This document shows positions 3,039-47,661 of a stretch of DNA of 64,000 nucleotides, piece after piece. The position numbers and the translations under genes are program-made. How positions within the stretch are numbered: the stretch's first letter is position 1; every line of letters starts with the position of its first letter. Where the stretch lies: positions 1-64,000 of IMG/VR virus record IMGVR_UViG_3300013132_000041; one strand, written 5' to 3'. This stretch comes from a virus. Below the pieces are notes generated by a model. The model was given only the letters and a program-made list of their open reading frames with translations, did not search any database and was not told the origin of the DNA.

Positions 3039-3377
3039 ATGACAACGGTCTATAAAGTTTTAGCTCAGTCTATTCCAACACAGAATACGTTAACTACTGT
3101 GTACAGCGTACCAAATGGAAATACCGCAGTTATTTCTACATTATCTGTTTGCAATCAATCTAATGTTAATAATGCTTCGTACAGAATAGCTATTCAAAAG
3201 AATAATGCAGCAATTTCGTCTAACGCATATATTGTTTTCGATGCATCAGTAGCAACTTTAGATACAGCATTTTTGACATTGGGTATTACAATGGGTAGTA
3301 ATGATGTCCTGAGTGCAAATATTACATCAGGAAATTCTAACGTATCTATTAATGTATTTGGGTCGGAGATTTTTTAA
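3039..3377 (+). CDS. 112-aa virion adaptor protein (module 2)
   Basis: MTTVYKVLAQS.P...FGSEIF; AAGGAA RBS; coupled to the glycine-rich gene. Confidence 0.7.
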   Translation: MTTVYKVLAQSIPTQNTLTTVYSVPNGNTAVISTLSVCNQSNVNNASYRIAIQKNNAAISSNAYIVFDASVATLDTAFLTLGITMGSNDVLSANITSGNSNVSINVFGSEIF

Positions 3378-5026
3378 TGGCTCTGGCATTTGCCTCTTCT
3401 ATTAATAAAAGAAGAACTATTTCACAGGTATTCAAAAGATTTATTTCTGGTTATTCTATAGTCCAAACCTTTACTGCTACGTCTACTTGGACATGCCCTA
3501 CTGGTGTTACTAGTGTTGAGTATTTGGTTGTGGCTGGTGGTGGTAGCGGAGGAAGAAACAATAACGGTGCTGGTGGGGGGGCTGGCGGGTATAGAACTGG
3601 AACTGGATTAAGTGTGGCCGCAGGAAATGATTACACCATTACCGTTGGTGGCGGTGGTGCAGCTTTAACTGGTGCTGGGGCCGGTAATAATGGAAGTGAT
3701 TCTTATATCCAATCAACAGCCTCTCCTCATATAACTGCAAATCCTTCTGCTCCAGGAAATCCATACGCAAATGCTTTTGTAGCATTTGGCGGCGGTGGTG
3801 GGGGTGGTACAGGTAGCTTAGGTGGCAAGAATGGTGGTTGTGGTGGTGGTGGGGCTGGTAGCGGATCACCTGCTCCTGGTGGAACAGGAAATACGCCATC
3901 AACTTCACCAAGTCAAGGTAATAATGGTGGTGCTGGACTAGATGGCACTGGTGCTGGTGGTGGTGGTGGGGCTGGTGGGAATGGTACTGCTGGTGGTAAT
4001 CCAGGTGGTGGTGGCGGTGTCGGTATACAAGGCCCATCTTTTGCGTCATCGTATGGTGGCTCTGGGCCTGGAGGATCTCCTTCAACAGGTTATTTTTCTG
4101 GTGGCGGCGCAGGTAATGGCCCTGCTGGTAACACAGCAGGTTATGGTGGCGGTGGAGCCACAAGCACTAATGGAACCACTAATAGCGGTGGAGGCGGGGG
4201 CGGGTGGAATGGGTCTGGTAATTCAGGAGCAGGCGGCTCCGGCATTGTTATTCTCAAGTACACCGTAGCAACTCAAACCGTATTTACGTTCAAAGGCACT
4301 ACCACTTGGACTTGCCCCGCAGGTGTAACCAGCGTTGACTATCTTGTAGTGGCTGGTGGCGGTGGTGGTGGAACTGGAGGCGGTCGTGGAGGTGGTGGCG
4401 GTGCTGGTGGTTATAGAACTGGCACAGCATTATCTGTAACAGCCGGCACTGATTACACCGTAACTGTTGGTGGTGGTGGTAATGGTGGAAATGTCGGCAG
4501 TAATTCGGTATTTAGCACCATTACATCCGCTGGTGGAGGTAACGGCGGAGGCGGCCCTTCATCACAAACCGGTGCAAACGGAGGTTCTGGAGGCGGTGGA
4601 GGTGCATTGGGTTCGCAACCAGCTAGCACTGGCGGGTCTGGAAACACTCCTTCCACGAGTCCTTCGCAAGGATCAAACGGTGGCGGCGGTACTGGATCGC
4701 CATCTTTTTATACTGGTGGCGGAGGCGGTGCTGGTGGTGTTGGTGGAACTGGCGCAGCTCCATCATCTGGAAACGGCGGTAACGGCACTGCTTCAAGTAT
4801 TAGCGGTTCGTCTGTAACTTATGCCGGTGGTGGCGGTGGTTCTATGGATCCATCAGGTGCAGGCACAGGTGGTACAGGTGGTGGCGGTAATGGTGGTAAT
4901 GGATCAAGTAATACAGGATTAACGGCAGGCACAACTAACACAGGCGGTGGGGGTGGAGGTTCAATTGCTCCTGGAACGGGAGCAAATGGCGGCTCCGGTA
5001 TCGTAATCATAAAAATAAATCAATAA
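3377..5026 (+). CDS. Glycine-rich tail-tip/adhesin protein (module 2)
   Basis: Same two-domain architecture and the same GGSGIVIIKINQ C-terminus as 1010-2746. Confidence 0.75.
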   Translation: MALAFASSINKRRTISQVFKRFISGYSIVQTFTATSTWTCPTGVTSVEYLVVAGGGSGGRNNNGAGGGAGGYRTGTGLSVAAGNDYTITVGGGGAALTGAGAGNNGSDSYIQSTASPHITANPSAPGNPYANAFVAFGGGGGGGTGSLGGKNGGCGGGGAGSGSPAPGGTGNTPSTSPSQGNNGGAGLDGTGAGGGGGAGGNGTAGGNPGGGGGVGIQGPSFASSYGGSGPGGSPSTGYFSGGGAGNGPAGNTAGYGGGGATSTNGTTNSGGGGGGWNGSGNSGAGGSGIVILKYTVATQTVFTFKGTTTWTCPAGVTSVDYLVVAGGGGGGTGGGRGGGGGAGGYRTGTALSVTAGTDYTVTVGGGGNGGNVGSNSVFSTITSAGGGNGGGGPSSQTGANGGSGGGGGALGSQPASTGGSGNTPSTSPSQGSNGGGGTGSPSFYTGGGGGAGGVGGTGAAPSSGNGGNGTASSISGSSVTYAGGGGGSMDPSGAGTGGTGGGGNGGNGSSNTGLTAGTTNTGGGGGGSIAPGTGANGGSGIVIIKINQ

Positions 5027-6573: not shown

Positions 6574-6933
6574 ATGGCCAATCCTAATTTAGCAAACGTA
6601 TCTGCCGGATATGGTAAAATGGCATTTCAAAATGTCGCCAATACTTTTGCAAACATTGTAGTTAATACATCTACAAGTAATACTATAGTGAAAGTAAATA
6701 GTTTATTCTTATCAAATTATGATGGAACCAATGTAGCTAATGTTACAGTAAATATTTCTAATGCTGGTATTAGTTATAGTGTTTTGACCAATGTTTCTAT
6801 TCCTTTACAGAGTTCTTTAATTGCTATAGACAAAGAAAGTTCTATCTATATGGAGGAAGGGCAATTTATGCAATTAAAAGCACATGCCAATAATCATGTC
6901 CAAGCTGTTTTAAGTTACGATATTATAAGTTAA
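6574..6933 (+). CDS. 119-aa virion adaptor protein (module 3)
   Basis: Paralog of 654-1010 (MANPNL...NTSTSN.I.K.N.L..SNY...K....Y.EEG). Confidence 0.7.
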   Translation: MANPNLANVSAGYGKMAFQNVANTFANIVVNTSTSNTIVKVNSLFLSNYDGTNVANVTVNISNAGISYSVLTNVSIPLQSSLIAIDKESSIYMEEGQFMQLKAHANNHVQAVLSYDIIS

Positions 6934-8789
6934 TGAGATCTAACGGTGGAATAGTAGGGGCAGTAAACAATCCTGCCTTATCCTTTTCCAGTGGTTTATG
7001 GACACTGGGTGACAAGTTTATAGCTACAAAACTTGGTACTTGGCCTCTTTACGGTGGCTTCAGCATCGTCCAAACCTTTACAGCAACAAGCACTTGGACA
7101 TGCCCTACTGGTGTTACAGAGGTTGAGTATTTGGTTGTGGCTGGTGGAGGTGGTGGTGGTTGCAGACGTGGAGCCGGAGGCGGTGCAGGAGGATTCAGAA
7201 CGGGTACTGGTTTAACTGTTACACCAAACCAAGATTACACTATTACAGTCGGTGCAGCGGGAACAGCAGGTTTAAATTCTGGTAGTACAGTAGCAGGAAA
7301 TGGTGGTAATAGTTATATTTCTGGGCCTGGGATTACTAACAATCCTTCATCTGGAAACCCGTACACCAATGCACTAGTGGCTTATGGTGGAGGTGGTGGA
7401 GGTGGTGACGGCCCCAGTATTAGTAACGGCGCAAGCGGAGGATCAGGAGGCGGTGCTGCTGGCTATAGCGGAGCAACGGCTGGTTCTGGAAATACACCAA
7501 ATACAACGGATGCACCGTATGGTGGGCCATCTTCTCAAGGCAATAACGGTGGCTCATCTTCATCGTCTGGCCCGAATATTGGGTCTGGAGGCGGCGGCGG
7601 CGCTGGTGGAAGCGGAGGTTCTGGAACTTCAACTTCTGGCGGTGCTGGTGGCAATGGAATTCAAGGCCCGTCTTTTGCATCTAGTTATGGAAGTTCTGGC
7701 CCAGGAGGATCACCTGCTAAAGGATATTTTTCCGGCGGTGGTGGCGGTGGAACGTATAACGGGCCTAATCTAGGTGGCGCTGGTGGTTATGGCGGCGGCG
7801 GCAATTCTGGTAGTTATTCTGGATTGGGTAACGGAGTAGCTGGCGTAACAAATTCTGGTGGTGGTGGGGGTGCTGGGTCAAACGGCGACCCTGGATTAAA
7901 TTACGATGGAGCAGCAGGCGGCTCCGGTATTGTTATCCTGAAGTATTTCGTACCATCACAAACTGTATTTACGTTCAAAGGCACTACCACTTGGACTTGC
8001 CCCGCAGGTGTAACCAGCGTTGACTATCTTGTGGTTGCTGGTGGGGGTGGGGGTGGGGGTGTTGGTGTGTCAGCCGGTATTGCTGGTGGTGGTGGCGCTG
8101 GCGGGTTTAGAACAGGAACGTCTTTAACTGTCACGGCAGGAGATTCTTACACAATTACCGTTGGCGCTGCTGGGTCTGCTGGAACAGCCGGTAGTGGATC
8201 TCCTGGCGCTGCTGGTGGTATAGGCGGGACAGGTGGTGCTTCATCAATTGCAGGTCCATCACCGTTTTCAACAATTAGTTCTGCTGGTGGTGGTGGAGGT
8301 TCTCCAGGTAGAGATAGTAATGTTGTGGGAGCTAACGGAGGATCTGGTGGCGGTGGCGGTGGTGGCGGTGCAGGAACTGGGAACACTGGAGGTACTGGTA
8401 ACACGCCGTCAACAAGTCCTTCTCAAGGCAACAATGGCGGTACTGGCGCAACAAGCGCACCAAACTACGGTGGCGGTGGCGGTGGCGGCGCTTCGGCGAT
8501 AGGAGCAAACGGAACGAGCAGCGTTGGCGGTAACGGAGGCAATGGAACCGCATCTTCAATTTCCGGCAGCAGCGTTACTTACGCTGGCGGTGGCGGTGGC
8601 GGCACTCTAGCAACATCAATCAGTAGTGGCGGCACAGGTGGCGGCGGCGCAGGAGGCAGAAGAACAGTAGCGCCAACCGCTGGGACAGCCAACTTAGGTG
8701 GCGGTGGCGGCGGTAGTGGTCAAGATGATACTGCTGGCGCAGGAGCAGCTGGCGGCTCCGGTATCGTCATCATAAAAATAAATCAATAA
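6933..8789 (+). CDS. Glycine-rich tail-tip/adhesin protein (module 3)
   Basis: Same architecture as modules 1 and 2; 618 aa. Confidence 0.75.
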   Translation: MRSNGGIVGAVNNPALSFSSGLWTLGDKFIATKLGTWPLYGGFSIVQTFTATSTWTCPTGVTEVEYLVVAGGGGGGCRRGAGGGAGGFRTGTGLTVTPNQDYTITVGAAGTAGLNSGSTVAGNGGNSYISGPGITNNPSSGNPYTNALVAYGGGGGGGDGPSISNGASGGSGGGAAGYSGATAGSGNTPNTTDAPYGGPSSQGNNGGSSSSSGPNIGSGGGGGAGGSGGSGTSTSGGAGGNGIQGPSFASSYGSSGPGGSPAKGYFSGGGGGGTYNGPNLGGAGGYGGGGNSGSYSGLGNGVAGVTNSGGGGGAGSNGDPGLNYDGAAGGSGIVILKYFVPSQTVFTFKGTTTWTCPAGVTSVDYLVVAGGGGGGGVGVSAGIAGGGGAGGFRTGTSLTVTAGDSYTITVGAAGSAGTAGSGSPGAAGGIGGTGGASSIAGPSPFSTISSAGGGGGSPGRDSNVVGANGGSGGGGGGGGAGTGNTGGTGNTPSTSPSQGNNGGTGATSAPNYGGGGGGGASAIGANGTSSVGGNGGNGTASSISGSSVTYAGGGGGGTLATSISSGGTGGGGAGGRRTVAPTAGTANLGGGGGGSGQDDTAGAGAAGGSGIVIIKINQ

Positions 8790-23957: not shown

Positions 23958-24014
23958 ATGTCTATGCGAAGATACCCTCCCCTAAAAACATTTAAGCTAA
24001 AAAGGAAAAAACAA

Positions 24015-24590
24015 ATGCTGACTGTTGGTGATAATCTAGAACCGTTTAATATCGTTGGTGTAAAGCCCGGTGCTCTTACACCCGAAGGTGCCTTTGAGGA
24101 CCTAACGGAACAATCTTTCCCTGGTAAGTGGAAAGTGATTATGTTCTATCCAAAATCATTTACGTTCGTATGCCCTACAGAAATCGTAGGATATGATAAA
24201 TTAAATGGTGATTTTAAAGATCGCGATACAATCTTATTAATGGGTTGTACAGATAATGAATATTGTTTATTAGCCTGGAAAAATCATCACGAAGATTTAA
24301 AGAAAACTAATTCATGGATGTTTGCAGATTTAATTAAACAATCGCAAGATTATAATAACGATCGCTATGTCGAGAATGGTTTGGCTGCTACGTTAGGTAT
24401 TTTGGATAAAGTAAATGGTGTACCTTTAAGAGCTACCTTCATTGTTGATCCAAATAATGTTATACAACACATAACGGTTAATAACTTAAATGTTGGTAGA
24501 AGCCCAGAGGAGACACTTCGTATTCTTGATGCATGTCAAACTGGAGAATTGTGCGCCTGTTCTAGGGAGATAGGTGAGGAAACACTATAA
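24015..24590 (+). CDS. ahpC: Peroxiredoxin AhpC
   Basis: FYPK.FTFVCPTE, RATFIVDP, VGR...E.LR.LDA.QTGELC. Start taken at MLTVGD after AAGGA. Confidence 0.92.
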   Translation: MLTVGDNLEPFNIVGVKPGALTPEGAFEDLTEQSFPGKWKVIMFYPKSFTFVCPTEIVGYDKLNGDFKDRDTILLMGCTDNEYCLLAWKNHHEDLKKTNSWMFADLIKQSQDYNNDRYVENGLAATLGILDKVNGVPLRATFIVDPNNVIQHITVNNLNVGRSPEETLRILDACQTGELCACSREIGEETL

Positions 24591-24594
24591 CCCG

Positions 24595-24646
24595 TTGGGC
24601 AGACATAAATAAATAATTTAAACAGGAAAAATATATGTCTGCCCAA
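24595..24646 (+). promoter_or_regulatory. 13-bp hairpin sequestering the endonuclease start codon, with an embedded late promoter
   Basis: TTGGGCAGACATA (24595-607) pairs with TATGTCTGCCCAA (24634-646). CATAAATA lies at 24604-611 and the ATG at 24635 is in the stem. Confidence 0.8.
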
Positions 24647-25390
24647 ACACCGTATACTTATTATGTTTATCACAAACCAACTGGATTGAAGTATTATGGT
24701 TCCAAATATGCTAAAAATAGTAATCCAAGTTTATTTTGGAAAAAAGATGGATACTTTACTTCTTCAGTTAAAATTCATAAATTAATCCAAGAATATGGGA
24801 CTGATTCTTTTTTTGCCTCTGTAAGAAAAAAATTTAAAACACCGCAAGAAGCTTTAGATTATGAATATAGATTTTTGAAAAAAGTTAATGCTTTAAAAAA
24901 ATCAGATTGGCTTAATAAGAATATGGGTGGTAAAAAGTTTAGCAATTATGGACCAGCGAGCGAAAAAGCTCTTTTATCGCAAAAAAATAAAAAACAAACT
25001 AAAGAGAGTAACATTAAAAGATCATTAACTTTGAAAAATAGAAAAAAATCTGAAGAAACTAAATTATTAATGTCTTTGGGCCAATTAAGTAGACCCAAAG
25101 AACAAGAAGAAATTCGTAGAAATAAAATACGAAGTAAGGCAATAGGTAGATTACATAGTGATATTACTAAGCAAAAACTTTCTATATTAGTTGCCAATAC
25201 TAAATGGATCAATGATGGCGTGTATCATAAAAAGGTTAATAAAGAGGATTTAAATAGTTATTTGAATTTGGGTTGGAAACAAGGAAGAATTTTAGAAAAA
25301 GTAATTTGCCCTCATTGCAATATATCCGGGGCAAAACACAATTTAGTTAGATATCATTTTGATAGATGTAAAAATAAGGATGATGAATGA
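24635..25390 (+). mobile_element. Free-standing GIY-YIG (Seg-like) homing endonuclease gene
   Basis: YTYYVYHKPTGLKYYGS...GYFTSS...EYG...F; basic NUMOD-like repeats; KWINDG; C-terminal CPHC...H...C finger. Sits between ahpC and ahpD. Confidence 0.75.
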
Positions 25391-25899
25391 GTTGGGTTGA
25401 TAATTTAAAAGAAACTATTCCAGATTATGCCAAGGATACAAGACTTAATCTGGATGCAGTAATTAAGCGTAGCAGCATTCCAGCCAATGAGGCTGAAGCC
25501 ATTGCTGTTGCAGCAGCATTTGCCACCGGTAACGTTAAATTTTGGACTTGGTTACATAGTGTGATTTTAGAACGTAATGAAGCAGATGCTGCACTTACGG
25601 CAGGAAGTATAATGTCAATGACAAATACTTGGTACCCCTATGTCGAAATGGCGGAAGATGATAACTTAAAAGGTCTTCCAGCGCAGTTAAGAATGAATGC
25701 TATTGCTAGTCATGGCGGTACTACTAAGGCGAGGTTTGAAGCATACAGTCTAGCCGCTAGTATTGTGGGTAAGTGTCATTTTTGCGTCAAAGCTCATTAC
25801 GAGACTTTGAAAAAAGAAGGCTATACTACAGAACAGTTACGAGACATTGGCCGTATCGCTGCTGTAATTACTGCAGTATCTAGAGTCTTGAATAACTAA
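25387..25899 (+). CDS. ahpD: Alkylhydroperoxidase AhpD
   Basis: PDYAKD.RLNL, M.M.N.WY, LAASIVGKCHFCVKAH. Confidence 0.92.
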   Translation: MSWVDNLKETIPDYAKDTRLNLDAVIKRSSIPANEAEAIAVAAAFATGNVKFWTWLHSVILERNEADAALTAGSIMSMTNTWYPYVEMAEDDNLKGLPAQLRMNAIASHGGTTKARFEAYSLAASIVGKCHFCVKAHYETLKKEGYTTEQLRDIGRIAAVITAVSRVLNN

Positions 25900-25907
25900 T
25901 ATATATT

Positions 25908-26320
25908 CATATAGTTGTATGAAGCAAGCAGAAACGTGCTGCGGACGGCGGTTCGATTCCGCCCAGGTCCACCAAAAAATAATTCGAGGAGTCAGTTATG
26001 GAGTCAGTTATGGAGTCAGTTAAAAAATTTATAGATGAACAATTAAACAAGGTTGATATTGATAAACAACGAGAGTTGATTATAAAACAGTCTTGCGAAA
26101 TTGAGCAACAAACTGAAAGAATCTTAAAGTTATTTTCTGAGGGGCCTGATTCTGGTTTCGACGGGGCAAATAGTAAGTAAGTGGACAACTCGTAAGGCGA
26201 AGGACGTAATCCTAGCAAACTAAATAGACGCAAACAACGACTATTTCTATCAGGATCTTAAGCTAGTCGCTTAAACCTGACGGGGTTTTGGCAGTTCACC
26301 TTGTTACCAAACGAACTGCC
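25908..26320 (+). ncRNA. ssrA: Circularly permuted (two-piece) tmRNA: acceptor piece ~25908-25974, intervening segment 25975-26141, coding piece 26142-~26320
   Basis: The T-arm GGCGG-TTCGATT-CCGCC followed by CAGGTCC-A-CCA ends at 25974. GGGCCTGATTCTGGTTTCGACGGG starts at 26142 and pairs 7 bp with it, including the G3-U alanine determinant. AGTTGT pairs with ACAACT. The tag frame 26230-26274 reads ANNDYFYQDLKLVA*. Outer ends are approximate. Confidence 0.93.
25998..26180 (+). CDS. 60-aa helical ORF starting in the tmRNA intervening segment and reading into the coding piece
   Basis: GAGGAG at 25986-91, ATG at 25998; 12-nt repeat GGAGTCAGTTAT in about 3 copies. Confidence 0.5.
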   Translation: MESVMESVKKFIDEQLNKVDIDKQRELIIKQSCEIEQQTERILKLFSEGPDSGFDGANSK

Positions 26321-26339
26321 TCACACACAAGGAGATTCA

Positions 26340-26882
26340 ATGAAAAAGACAATTTTAGCATTAGCTTTAGCAACAGCTGCGGCAACTTCTCAAGCTGCTA
26401 ATTATGTAAGTTTCGATGTAGATCAAGTTAAGGATACTCGCAACAAAGCAGAAAGTACTGCACAGTATTTCCGTGCCGGTAAAGATATGGCTGGACTTAA
26501 TTTGGATCTTCAGGTTCGAACAGCAGTTTTTGATAAAGGCGGAATGCTTAATAGTGTCGAAGTTACTGCAGGTAAAAACATTGCCGGTCTTAATGCATTC
26601 GGCGGTGTAGGTTATGACAATGGTTTTAATGGTAAAGTCAACGGTGATTTTACTTATGGCTTAGTCGGTCTCAAAGCAGGAGTTCCTATTGGTCCTCTAT
26701 TCGCTTTTACTGGTGTTAAGACTCGAGTAAATTGGGACACTGATAATCCAAAGCAGACTGTTACTTGGTTAGGCGCCAGTATGCCTCTCAACAAAGCAGT
26801 TAGTGTTAGCGCCAGCATGAGTCGTTCTTTACAGGACATTCAAGAAAAAGCAGTTGGTGTTGGGCTACGTGTAGCCTATTAA
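26340..26882 (+). CDS. Outer-membrane beta-barrel protein with signal peptide
   Basis: MKKTILALALATAAATSQA signal peptide, amphipathic strands, C-terminal VGVGLRVAY beta-signal; AAGGAG RBS. Confidence 0.75.
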   Translation: MKKTILALALATAAATSQAANYVSFDVDQVKDTRNKAESTAQYFRAGKDMAGLNLDLQVRTAVFDKGGMLNSVEVTAGKNIAGLNAFGGVGYDNGFNGKVNGDFTYGLVGLKAGVPIGPLFAFTGVKTRVNWDTDNPKQTVTWLGASMPLNKAVSVSASMSRSLQDIQEKAVGVGLRVAY

Positions 26883-45811: not shown

Positions 45812-47661
45812 TGGCTAACCTTAGAATAGCAGAGCTTGATTTTGGCACTATAAAATCTAATCTTAAAACTTTTCTAAAAGCACAGAACGAATTTTCGGAT
45901 TATGATTTTGAGGGATCGGGATTATCTACTTTAATTGATTTATTGTCCTATAATACTCATTATAATGCATATCTGGCAAACATGTTAGTAAATGAAATGT
46001 TTTTGGATAGTGCAGTAAAAAGGACGTCAGCTGTATCGATTGCAAAACATTTGGGTTATACTCCTAGATCTGTACGAGGAGCTAGAGCAACTATAACTGT
46101 TCAAGTAAATAGCCCAACAGGATCTCCATCCAATGTTACAATGGATAGATATACGCCGTTTACTACTACAGTTAACGGTACAAGTTTTACTTTTTTAAAT
46201 ACTGTTCCATATACTGTTACTCCATCTGGCGGCAATTATATTTTCACAGATATTGAGATAGTTGAGGGTCAAAACTTTGAATACAAATACACAGTAGCAT
46301 CGCCAGGTCCTTCAGAAAAATTTGAAATACCTTCCGAAAACGTTGATACATCTACACTTAGAGTTTTAGTACAAAATTCATCTGCTGACACTATACAAAC
46401 TGTGTATTCGTTATACAATGAATTATCAGCAGTCGAATCAGATTCTTTAGTGTATTATATTGAAGAAAATGCTAACGGTAGATATCAAATTTATTTTGGT
46501 GATGATGTTTTAGGGAAAAAACTTATAGCAGGAAATATAGTAATTATTCAATATTTGGTTTCCAGTGGTTCAGATTGTAATGTATCTAGCTTGTTGCCTC
46601 AAACCTTCTCTCTATCCGGAACTATAGATGGTAATAGTAATGTCACTATAACTGTAGGAAGCAATTCTACAGGTGGGGCTCCCAAAGAAACTATATCAGA
46701 AATAAAATTTAACGCGCCTAGGCAATATTTAAGTCAAAACAGAGCAGTGACATCTGATGATTATAAAACTATAATACAAACTAATTATCCTTTAGCACAA
46801 TCAATAGCAGTTTGGGGAGGGGAAGACAATGTGCCTCCTATATATGGTAAGGTTTTGATTTCACTTAAACCTTATGCGGGTTATGTAATAAGTAATTTGA
46901 CAAAAGAATCCATAAAAAATGATATTCTTGCATCTAAAAAAGCTATAGGTATACAAATAGATTTTGTGGAACCTCAATACTTTTATGTTAATTTAAATGT
47001 AACAGTAAATTACAATAGTAGAAATACTACATTATCTAATTCACAAATTAAAACTTTAGCTACTAATGCTATAACTAATTATTTCGCAAACAATCTTGAA
47101 AAATTTGATGCTGATTTTTATCTTTCTAAGCTATCGAAAGCTATAGATGATTCAAGTTCTGCTATAGTTGGCAGTCTTATAACTTTATCTTTACAGAAAA
47201 GAATTGAACCTACTCTTAATGTAAATAATTCTTTTTTAAGTAGTGATTCTATTAGATTTTTTCATAAAATTAAACCATATGGTATTTCTTCCACACGATT
47301 TAATATAATAGTTGGGACAGAAACAACTGCAGTTACAATAACTGATACACCGAACGATACCCCTATTAATGACAACGGTTTAGGTACTTTAATTTTAAAA
47401 AATGTATTGACGGGTTCTACTGTAAGCACAAATATAGGATCAATAAATTATGCTACAGGTGAAATTACTATTACGTCTTTGTTGCCAATAGGTTATCCTT
47501 CAGGTCAAACAGATATAAGAATTAATGCCAGATTGCAAGAAGCTTCTTACAATCTAGTTGCCAATAGAGAACAAATTATAGTTTTAGACGATAGTACTTT
47601 AGATCCTCTTGCTAGCAGACAATCTGGTTTAACTGTAACTGCCTTAGATATAGCATTGTAA
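45811..47661 (+). CDS. gp6: Baseplate wedge gp6
   Basis: LDF..IK.NLK.FL..Q.EF.DYDFEGS, NEMFLDSA..R..AVS.AK.LGY.P.S, QNRAVT..DY. Confidence 0.93.
   Translation: MANLRIAELDFGTIKSNLKTFLKAQNEFSDYDFEGSGLSTLIDLLSYNTHYNAYLANMLVNEMFLDSAVKRTSAVSIAKHLGYTPRSVRGARATITVQVNSPTGSPSNVTMDRYTPFTTTVNGTSFTFLNTVPYTVTPSGGNYIFTDIEIVEGQNFEYKYTVASPGPSEKFEIPSENVDTSTLRVLVQNSSADTIQTVYSLYNELSAVESDSLVYYIEENANGRYQIYFGDDVLGKKLIAGNIVIIQYLVSSGSDCNVSSLLPQTFSLSGTIDGNSNVTITVGSNSTGGAPKETISEIKFNAPRQYLSQNRAVTSDDYKTIIQTNYPLAQSIAVWGGEDNVPPIYGKVLISLKPYAGYVISNLTKESIKNDILASKKAIGIQIDFVEPQYFYVNLNVTVNYNSRNTTLSNSQIKTLATNAITNYFANNLEKFDADFYLSKLSKAIDDSSSAIVGSLITLSLQKRIEPTLNVNNSFLSSDSIRFFHKIKPYGISSTRFNIIVGTETTAVTITDTPNDTPINDNGLGTLILKNVLTGSTVSTNIGSINYATGEITITSLLPIGYPSGQTDIRINARLQEASYNLVANREQIIVLDDSTLDPLASRQSGLTVTALDIAL

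Follow-up and report, generated by a model that had tools for sequence, protein, structure and literature searches.

The intervening segment (IVS) of a two-piece tmRNA gene in a T4-like phage was found to carry an open reading frame (ORF) that, judged by the conservation of its sequence, is a genuine small gene of 44-48 codons without a stop codon of its own. The ORF lies in a stretch of 64,000 nucleotides, hereafter called the window, which is part of the 75.6-kb IMG/VR virus record IMGVR_UViG_3300013132_000041. The probable explanation is that a small hitchhiking gene occupies the spacer of the two-piece tmRNA and is translated from the tmRNA precursor, non-stop fragments being a by-product. 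The anatomy of the gene, its conservation, the selection acting on it and its mosaic structure were shown in this analysis. Genes for two-piece tmRNAs have been described before, with the spacer regarded as disposable sequence; in the window, a single transcript would serve both as the precursor of a stable RNA and as a messenger. This raises a concrete question, namely how ribosome and RNase P compete on one RNA. A preliminary description of this DNA had read the ORF as a sensor or feedback loop for trans-translation, and that interpretation is, as a whole, partly supported.

The phage and its permuted tmRNA gene

The phage was recognized as a T4-like myovirus from PHROG matches, including gp32 SSB, baseplate wedge and hub proteins and the tail tube cap. 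The closest cultured relatives are the Pelagibacter phages Mosig and HTVC008M and the OM43 phage Melnitz, with approximately 40% amino acid identity in a gp6-like protein. The source habitat is probably fresh water. Just upstream of the tmRNA gene, an ORF of the AhpC/TSA family (23958-24590) and a CMD/AhpD-like ORF (25387-25899) form a peroxiredoxin pair. Between them lies a 251-aa ORF (24635-25390) with a weak NUMOD3 match below the Pfam cut-off, which may be a free-standing homing-endonuclease-like insert. Three paralogous ORFs matching phrog_2295 (1010-2746, 3377-5026 and 6933-8789), two of which also match a tail-fibre-assembly family, are located in the left 10 kb, where the G+C content is 43-48% versus approximately 30-35% in the rest of the window.

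A permuted tmRNA was called by ARAGORN at 25882-26365, with the tag ANNDYFYQDLKLVA. The Rfam model RF04321 (tmRNA_permuted) matched positions 25913-26274 over model positions 1-213 with 110.1 bits (E = 1.4e-20), well over its gathering threshold of 47 bits. The order of the parts, with T-arm, acceptor 3′ strand and CCA followed by the IVS and then by the acceptor 5′ strand, corresponds to the permuted form (Table 1). In the acceptor stem, CAGGUCC, followed by the ACCA that ends at 25974, forms 7 pairs with GGGCCUG (26142-26148), the third of them being G3:U70. The tag starts with alanine and has a hydrophobic degron end; the tags of relatives end in LAA. The window tag ANNDYFYQDLKLVA is separated by two single-base changes, at window positions 26236 and 26267, from ANDDYFYQDLKLAA, the tag in the related tmRNA genes L097, L114 and L119. 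Since G at 26236 and C at 26267 were present in every related contig of the four sequencing runs examined, the unusual LVA ending is either private to the window record or a rare variant.

Table 1. Positions of the tmRNA parts, the spacer and the spacer ORF within the window
Feature	Position	Strand	Basis
Promoter-like TTGAAT-16-TATAGT just 5′ of the tmRNA gene (weak candidate)	25888..25915	+	9/12 matches
tmRNA acceptor piece: P2 strand, T-arm, acceptor 3′ strand CAGGUCC, ACCA	25913..25974	+	RF04321 alignment, ARAGORN
IVS, 167 nt, predicted to be removed during maturation	25975..26141	+	Acceptor-stem ends in RF04321 alignment
Closing stem, 5′ strand (pairs with 26128-26136)	25976..25984	+	Nine contiguous pairs, MFE fold
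Shine-Dalgarno-like GAGGAG, 6 nt before ATG 25998	25986..25991	+	Sequence
12-nt tandem repeat GGAGTCAGTTAT	25988..26022	+	Tandem Repeats Finder: period 12, 2.9 copies, 100% matches
ORF, 60 aa, TAA stop at 26178-26180	25998..26180	+	ORF translation, family alignments
Closing stem, 3′ strand, inside ORF codons K-L-F-S	26128..26136	+	MFE fold, pairing
tmRNA coding piece: acceptor 5′ strand GGGCCUG (26142-26148), D-loop analogue, through tag frame	26142..26274	+	ARAGORN, RF04321
Tag reading frame ANNDYFYQDLKLVA plus TAA	26230..26274	+	ARAGORN, sequence

Promoter-like sites were no more numerous in this region than in shuffled sequences, and the one at 25888-25915 scored no better than chance. The IVS of the window has a G+C content of 29%, compared with a mean of 41% for the non-coding IVSs of relatives. 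The ends of the relatives' IVSs pair, and the resulting closing stem stacks under the acceptor stem; a stem of at least 6 bp (median 11) was found in 62 of their 64 distinct IVSs, with sequences that differ between lineages. In the fold of the window precursor the Shine-Dalgarno (SD) region is partly paired. The fold z-score of the window IVS was -1.0, weaker than that of the non-coding IVSs.

Anatomy and conservation of the spacer ORF

The preliminary description had placed a GAGGAG motif, an ATG and 48 sense codons in the IVS, ending at the predicted RNase P cut, with the stop codon inside the tmRNA coding piece. All of these coordinates hold: codon 48 (GAG, 26139-26141) ends exactly on the predicted cut (26141/26142), a further 12 codons (26142-26177) belong to the mature 5′ end of the tmRNA, and the stop was confirmed as TAA. 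The only stop lies downstream of the predicted cut in all tmRNA-embedded members of the family, seen or inferred, so that cleavage would indeed leave the translated fragment stop-less. The start region, described as about three copies of a repeat that supplies GGAG and ATG, was recovered as such by Tandem Repeats Finder. The repeat GGAGTCAGTTAT provides two ATGs (25998 and 26010), each with GGAG 6 nt ahead, and because of it the window ORF has 48 codons within the IVS rather than the 44 of the conserved core (26010-26141). Two relatives, L002 and L120, have a single copy of the repeat and no SD before the ATG, and in a third, L132, AAAGGT precedes the ATG. A start duplication was also found, at the protein level, in cluster P0008 (MEQVMEQV). 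These start-region repeats suggest selection on initiation. The neighbouring downstream gene, with AAGGAG at 26328-26333 and ATG at 26340, displays the same spacing as the GAGGAG and ATG of the ORF.

An ATG-started frame of at least 44 codons within the IVS was obtained in approximately 1% of mono- or dinucleotide shuffles. That a codon boundary coincides with the cut has, taken alone, a chance of 1 in 3. Of the three possible frames, one is shut by conserved TGAs at -4 to -2 and +6 to +8 relative to the cut, and in the comparison of the window with L132 the two frames other than that of the ORF hold 5-8 stops. The encoded peptide is acidic and rich in Q, E and K. AlphaFold2, run on an 8-row alignment, predicted helices at residues 2-18 and 21-47 with a pLDDT of 83, followed by a disordered tail (pLDDT 54) that begins exactly where the tmRNA sequence begins.

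In a word-indexed search of 5.8 billion proteins, eight clusters with 70-100% identity to the ORF were found. More distant members (P0009-P0013 and P0015-P0017), with identities as low as 35-50%, were recovered when 1.84 billion representatives were searched with a HMMER profile. The family comprises about 17 protein clusters. Most members came from protein databases, and the always-open frame is partly an effect of this ascertainment. DNA was available for three relatives (L002, L120 and L132); among viral contigs, searches with degenerate DNA patterns gained only L120, and a scan of metagenome contigs found no relatives. Several candidates were rejected: L121-L124 are chance matches where no tmRNA is present, L133 is a chance match within a larger gene, and in L134-L144 the match is confined to the tmRNA-encoded tail of P0012. 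The ORF protein matched no Pfam family at E ≤ 0.01 and gave no usable match in PHROGs or in a BFVD fold search, and its ESM Atlas scores of 0.88-0.90 were within the chance range. A homing-endonuclease or intron origin of the insert was discarded, as the insert is short (44 codons) and shows neither a nuclease motif nor an intron structure.

The ORF core of L002 differs from that of the window at 5 of 132 bases and that of L120 at 11 of 132. The core of L132, which encodes P0013 exactly, is 71% identical to the window. Between window and L132, dN was 0.29 and dS 0.84, a ratio of approximately 0.35 (Fisher P = 0.018), with 14/7/17 differences at the three codon positions; the selection test for this family rests on this one divergent DNA sequence. 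Within the trio of window, L002 and L120, dN/dS ranged from 0.85 to 2.4 on only 5-12 substitutions, with no third-position bias. Compared with random single-base neighbours, the amino acid replacements across ten sequences were more conservative (P = 0.025). Among the at least 15 sequences of alignments A1 and A2, the core shows only in-frame indels, a repeat of 4 codons at the start and, in P0015 and P0017, an insertion of 8 codons. The frame and its selective constraint had been put forward earlier as features to be expected in relatives together with the ribosome-binding site: the frame is kept and the ratio against L132 is low, but L002 and L120 have no SD.

Exchange of spacers between tmRNA backbones

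The 25-nt acceptor end of the window tmRNA was found in more than 117 IMG/VR contigs, nearly all of which are permuted tmRNAs. Their IVSs range in length from 51 to 398 nt; most have 51-119 nt and approximately 41% G+C and are non-coding. An ORF starting 12-24 nt after the CCA is held by 11 of the 64 distinct IVSs, all of them AT-rich (23-35% G+C), mostly behind a purine-rich SD-like motif, L002 and L120 being the exceptions. These ORFs belong to eight unrelated families and have 31 to 124 codons. Four families (L046, L098, L005 and L095) terminate at an internal stop 4-16 nt ahead of the cut, three cross the cut in phase 0 and one (L096) crosses it in another frame. Selection was tested in two families, that of the window and that of L107/L020, and both passed; the other slot ORFs were mostly judged by their anatomy. 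Between L107 and L020, 26 of 30.5 synonymous sites had changed versus 29 of 137.5 non-synonymous sites (P = 2e-11), with 11/12/32 differences by codon position, and this ORF also reads across the cut site. The longest spacer, of 398 nt, occurs at L095:2791-3162 (also in L043); its ORF of 124 codons terminates by itself, the stop lying 14 nt ahead of the tmRNA 5′ end, and has no Pfam match and only faint PHROG matches.

In a tree of the mature tmRNA parts, the ORF-bearing genes were scattered. The mature variable parts of L119, L097 and L114 (acceptor piece only) are 87-93% identical to those of the window, and their IVSs, of 51-65 nt, are unrelated and non-coding. L002 and L120, with mature variable parts only 68-77% identical, share the ORF; over the whole IVS, repeat indel included, the window is 82% identical to L002 and 78% to L120. 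The right crossover can be placed between GGGCCTGATTCTGG, which matches the L002/L120 type, and the L119-type sequence that starts with GGGGCAAATAGTAAG; the left one falls within the invariant T-arm and acceptor sequence. The family occupies at least four tmRNA backbones with different tags. From this sequence pattern, the ORF is best described as a recombined cassette that arrived in the window tmRNA and moves between backbones. As backbones approximately 90% identical to that of the window carry unrelated non-coding IVSs, the ORF must be dispensable for the window tmRNA. Short non-coding spacers in relatives had been named in the preliminary description as an outcome contrary to its reading; L119, L097 and L114 do have them, while within the ORF family the frame is conserved.

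The C-terminal end of the product varies with the backbone. Tails of the L119 type read GANSK-stop, those of the L002 type GV.ST... with 22-32 residues, and that of L132 GPVTVSTG-stop. Between backbones the tmRNA-read tail shifts frame (GFDG vs VSTG, that is, FDG versus STG), which is the behaviour expected of an RNA-constrained non-coding stretch. Stop position and tail are set by the recipient backbone. A similar exchange is familiar from the hyperplastic regions of T4-type phages, where small ORFs are shuffled between conserved flanks. As in those regions, unrelated small genes occupy the same position and would be moved by recombination in conserved flanks; unlike there, the flanks in the window are the two halves of the tRNA-like domain of a stable RNA, and the slot is an RNA-processing spacer. 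The spacer may be regarded as a site favourable to recombination, used by aquatic T4-like phages to carry and exchange small genes (eight families in 64 spacers), and its ORFs hint at a reservoir of phage proteins that are small and probably early. At L132:1380-1425, an apparent 3′ end of a tRNA gene (…GGTCATCAGTTCGAATCCGATATTCAGCACCA) was found directly upstream of the permuted tmRNA, and a DNA contig of run X2 has a similar junction.

Two-piece tmRNAs are known in Melnitz, HTVC008M and Mosig, and the tmRNA, a riboswitch and a host origin have been discussed for them; the coding capacity of the IVS is absent from that discussion of the tmRNAs of Melnitz and the pelagimyophages (PMC9004378). 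The window phage resembles these three in being a T4-like myovirus whose gene runs acceptor piece, IVS, coding piece, but its tmRNA cannot be aligned with that of any cultured phage at the DNA level beyond the T-arm. The Melnitz record MZ577097.1 annotates only a tmRNA at 45984-46436. Its 142-nt IVS was found to contain GGAG and an ATG, from which 41 codons run precisely up to the predicted RNase P cut; 13 further codons are read from the tmRNA, giving an unannotated ORF of 54 aa (L128:1565-1745, approximately 46077-46257 of MZ577097.1). Seven metagenome clusters are 76-98% identical to it, one of them with an in-frame 8-codon insertion. The IVS of HTVC008M, of 49 nt, is non-coding. Annotation is affected because spacer ORFs are hidden under the tmRNA feature, as in the Melnitz record, and the cultured pair of Melnitz and OM43 makes the competition between ribosome and RNase P open to experiment.

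According to the tmRNA database paper, mature tmRNA lacks the IVS, whose length varies and which may contain foreign inserts, with a tRNA-Ala gene in one case and a repetitive element in another (PMC11915505). Protein genes in the IVS are not described there, homing-endonuclease ORFs being mentioned only in group I introns of the intron form (PMC11915505). The window IVS is likewise a spacer with a foreign insert, and differs in that the insert is a protein gene. A full-text literature search, with some older key papers outside its reach, returned no description of coding IVSs.

Probable translation from the precursor and competing readings

In the explanation considered probable, the cassette would be transcribed together with the tmRNA, possibly from the weak promoter-like site at 25888-25915. 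Ribosomes would load on the emerging SD and, trailing the polymerase, traverse first the spacer and then the acceptor 5′ strand as far as the TAA at 26178. As the ORF lacks a stop of its own, they would cross the RNase P site and terminate at the first in-frame stop, and the short disordered tail appended by this read-through would differ in sequence from one host tmRNA backbone to another. The polypeptide so made would comprise two helices and be rich in Q, E and K. Folding of the closing and acceptor stems, and cleavage by RNase P, would have to await the passage of the ribosomes, translation and folding of these stems being, in this scheme, mutually exclusive on one molecule. A ribosome left on a cleaved spacer would form a non-stop complex in need of rescue, an inherent cost or quirk that could in principle be exploited. 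Cassettes would be exchanged by recombination in the conserved tRNA-like halves that flank the spacer. We infer the joint transcription, the translation from the precursor and the fate of the cleaved fragments from the arrangement of the gene.

It is unlikely, although it is the alternative that survives best, that the missing stop was itself selected. The excised spacer would then be a non-stop mRNA whose peptide is tagged by tmRNA and degraded, in an ArfA-like rescue-capacity circuit in which untagged protein builds up only before processing or when trans-translation is saturated. If so, tmRNA maturation would switch a small early protein from being made (on the precursor) to being tagged and destroyed (on the cleaved spacer), and its level would report the rescue and processing capacity of the infected cell through a circuit built into the precursor of a stable RNA. 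There is a precedent in E. coli arfA, where a cut by the endonuclease RNase III removes the stop codon and the product of the non-stop mRNA is tagged, and so repressed by trans-translation, unless tmRNA is limiting (PMC3989581); ArfA is the one protein known to be regulated in this way. Like arfA, the window ORF has a predicted endonuclease site (26141/26142) upstream of its only stop (26178-26180). The cut in the window, predicted from the sequence, would be made by RNase P during tmRNA maturation and not by RNase III, and the window peptide is acidic and helical, whereas ArfA is a basic ribosome-binding peptide; nor was there any Pfam or PHROG match that would indicate ArfA homology.

The positions of the stops can be read both ways. 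Beyond the window, the stop lies past the cut in L002, L120 and L132, phase-0 tails are found in P0001-P0010, P0012 and P0013, and three other families of IVS ORFs, as well as the unannotated ORF of Melnitz, lack an internal stop. The WA-stop ending of P0015 and P0017 agrees with the acceptor-stem TGA past the cut; this same ending fits T|GG GCC TGA, inferred from protein only, so that the phase at the cut is apparently not kept. The tails of P0011 and P0016, both known from protein alone, are unlike any tmRNA 5′ end. Moreover, a stop-less design with a common phase is not a rule in the slot, as L046, L098, L005, L095 and L096 deviate from it, and tail and stop are dictated by the backbone and not by the ORF. 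Near-identical tmRNA backbones also operate with non-coding IVSs. An excised leader, with a 5′ monophosphate and a free 3′ end, is probably short-lived, which likewise counts against a feedback loop. The claim of a selected sensor or loop is consequently left unsupported by close backbones without the ORF, by stops set by the backbone and by the own stops of four of the eight families. The outcome in the slot looks opportunistic, translation ending at whichever stop comes first, and a non-stop loop, while possible, appears to be a side effect of the position of the gene.

We consider still less likely a cis-acting leader, in which the transit of ribosomes, and not the peptide, holds the stems open and so delays or doses tmRNA maturation early in infection. 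The ORF does overlap the 3′ strand of the closing stem, a stem present in 62 of 64 IVSs, and crosses the acceptor 5′ strand; the partly paired SD region, the recurrence in P0008 of the start repeat that creates GGAG and ATG, and the dN/dS near 1 among close relatives, on 5-12 substitutions, would also fit. Against this reading stand the constraint at the peptide level in the comparison with L132, the confidently predicted fold, the presence of unrelated ORFs of 31 to 124 codons in the same slot, and the maturation of most related tmRNAs with no ORF at all.

Very improbable is an untranslated ORF, its open frame being due to chance or to an RNA-level feature of the AT-rich spacer: base composition, the lack of an SD in L002 and L120 and the absent third-position bias in the three close sequences would agree with it, but it is contradicted by the rarity of such a length in shuffles (1%), by homologues whose replacements are conservative and whose indels are all in frame even at 35-50% identity, by the dN/dS of 0.35 (P = 0.018) next to two other frames with 5-8 stops, and by a fold weaker than that of non-coding IVSs.

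Sequencing runs with related tmRNAs were also inspected. In four of them (three RNA-library and one DNA), which carry related tmRNAs with other IVSs, cover of positions 25986-26138 was zero. Contigs of the RNA-library runs X12 and X20 join a near-identical acceptor piece (window 25914-25976) to a short non-coding IVS type (TGGTCTCTCTCCGTAGAATACC...), which indicates that metatranscriptome libraries of river and marine origin contain related tmRNAs, either as unprocessed precursor or as contaminating DNA.
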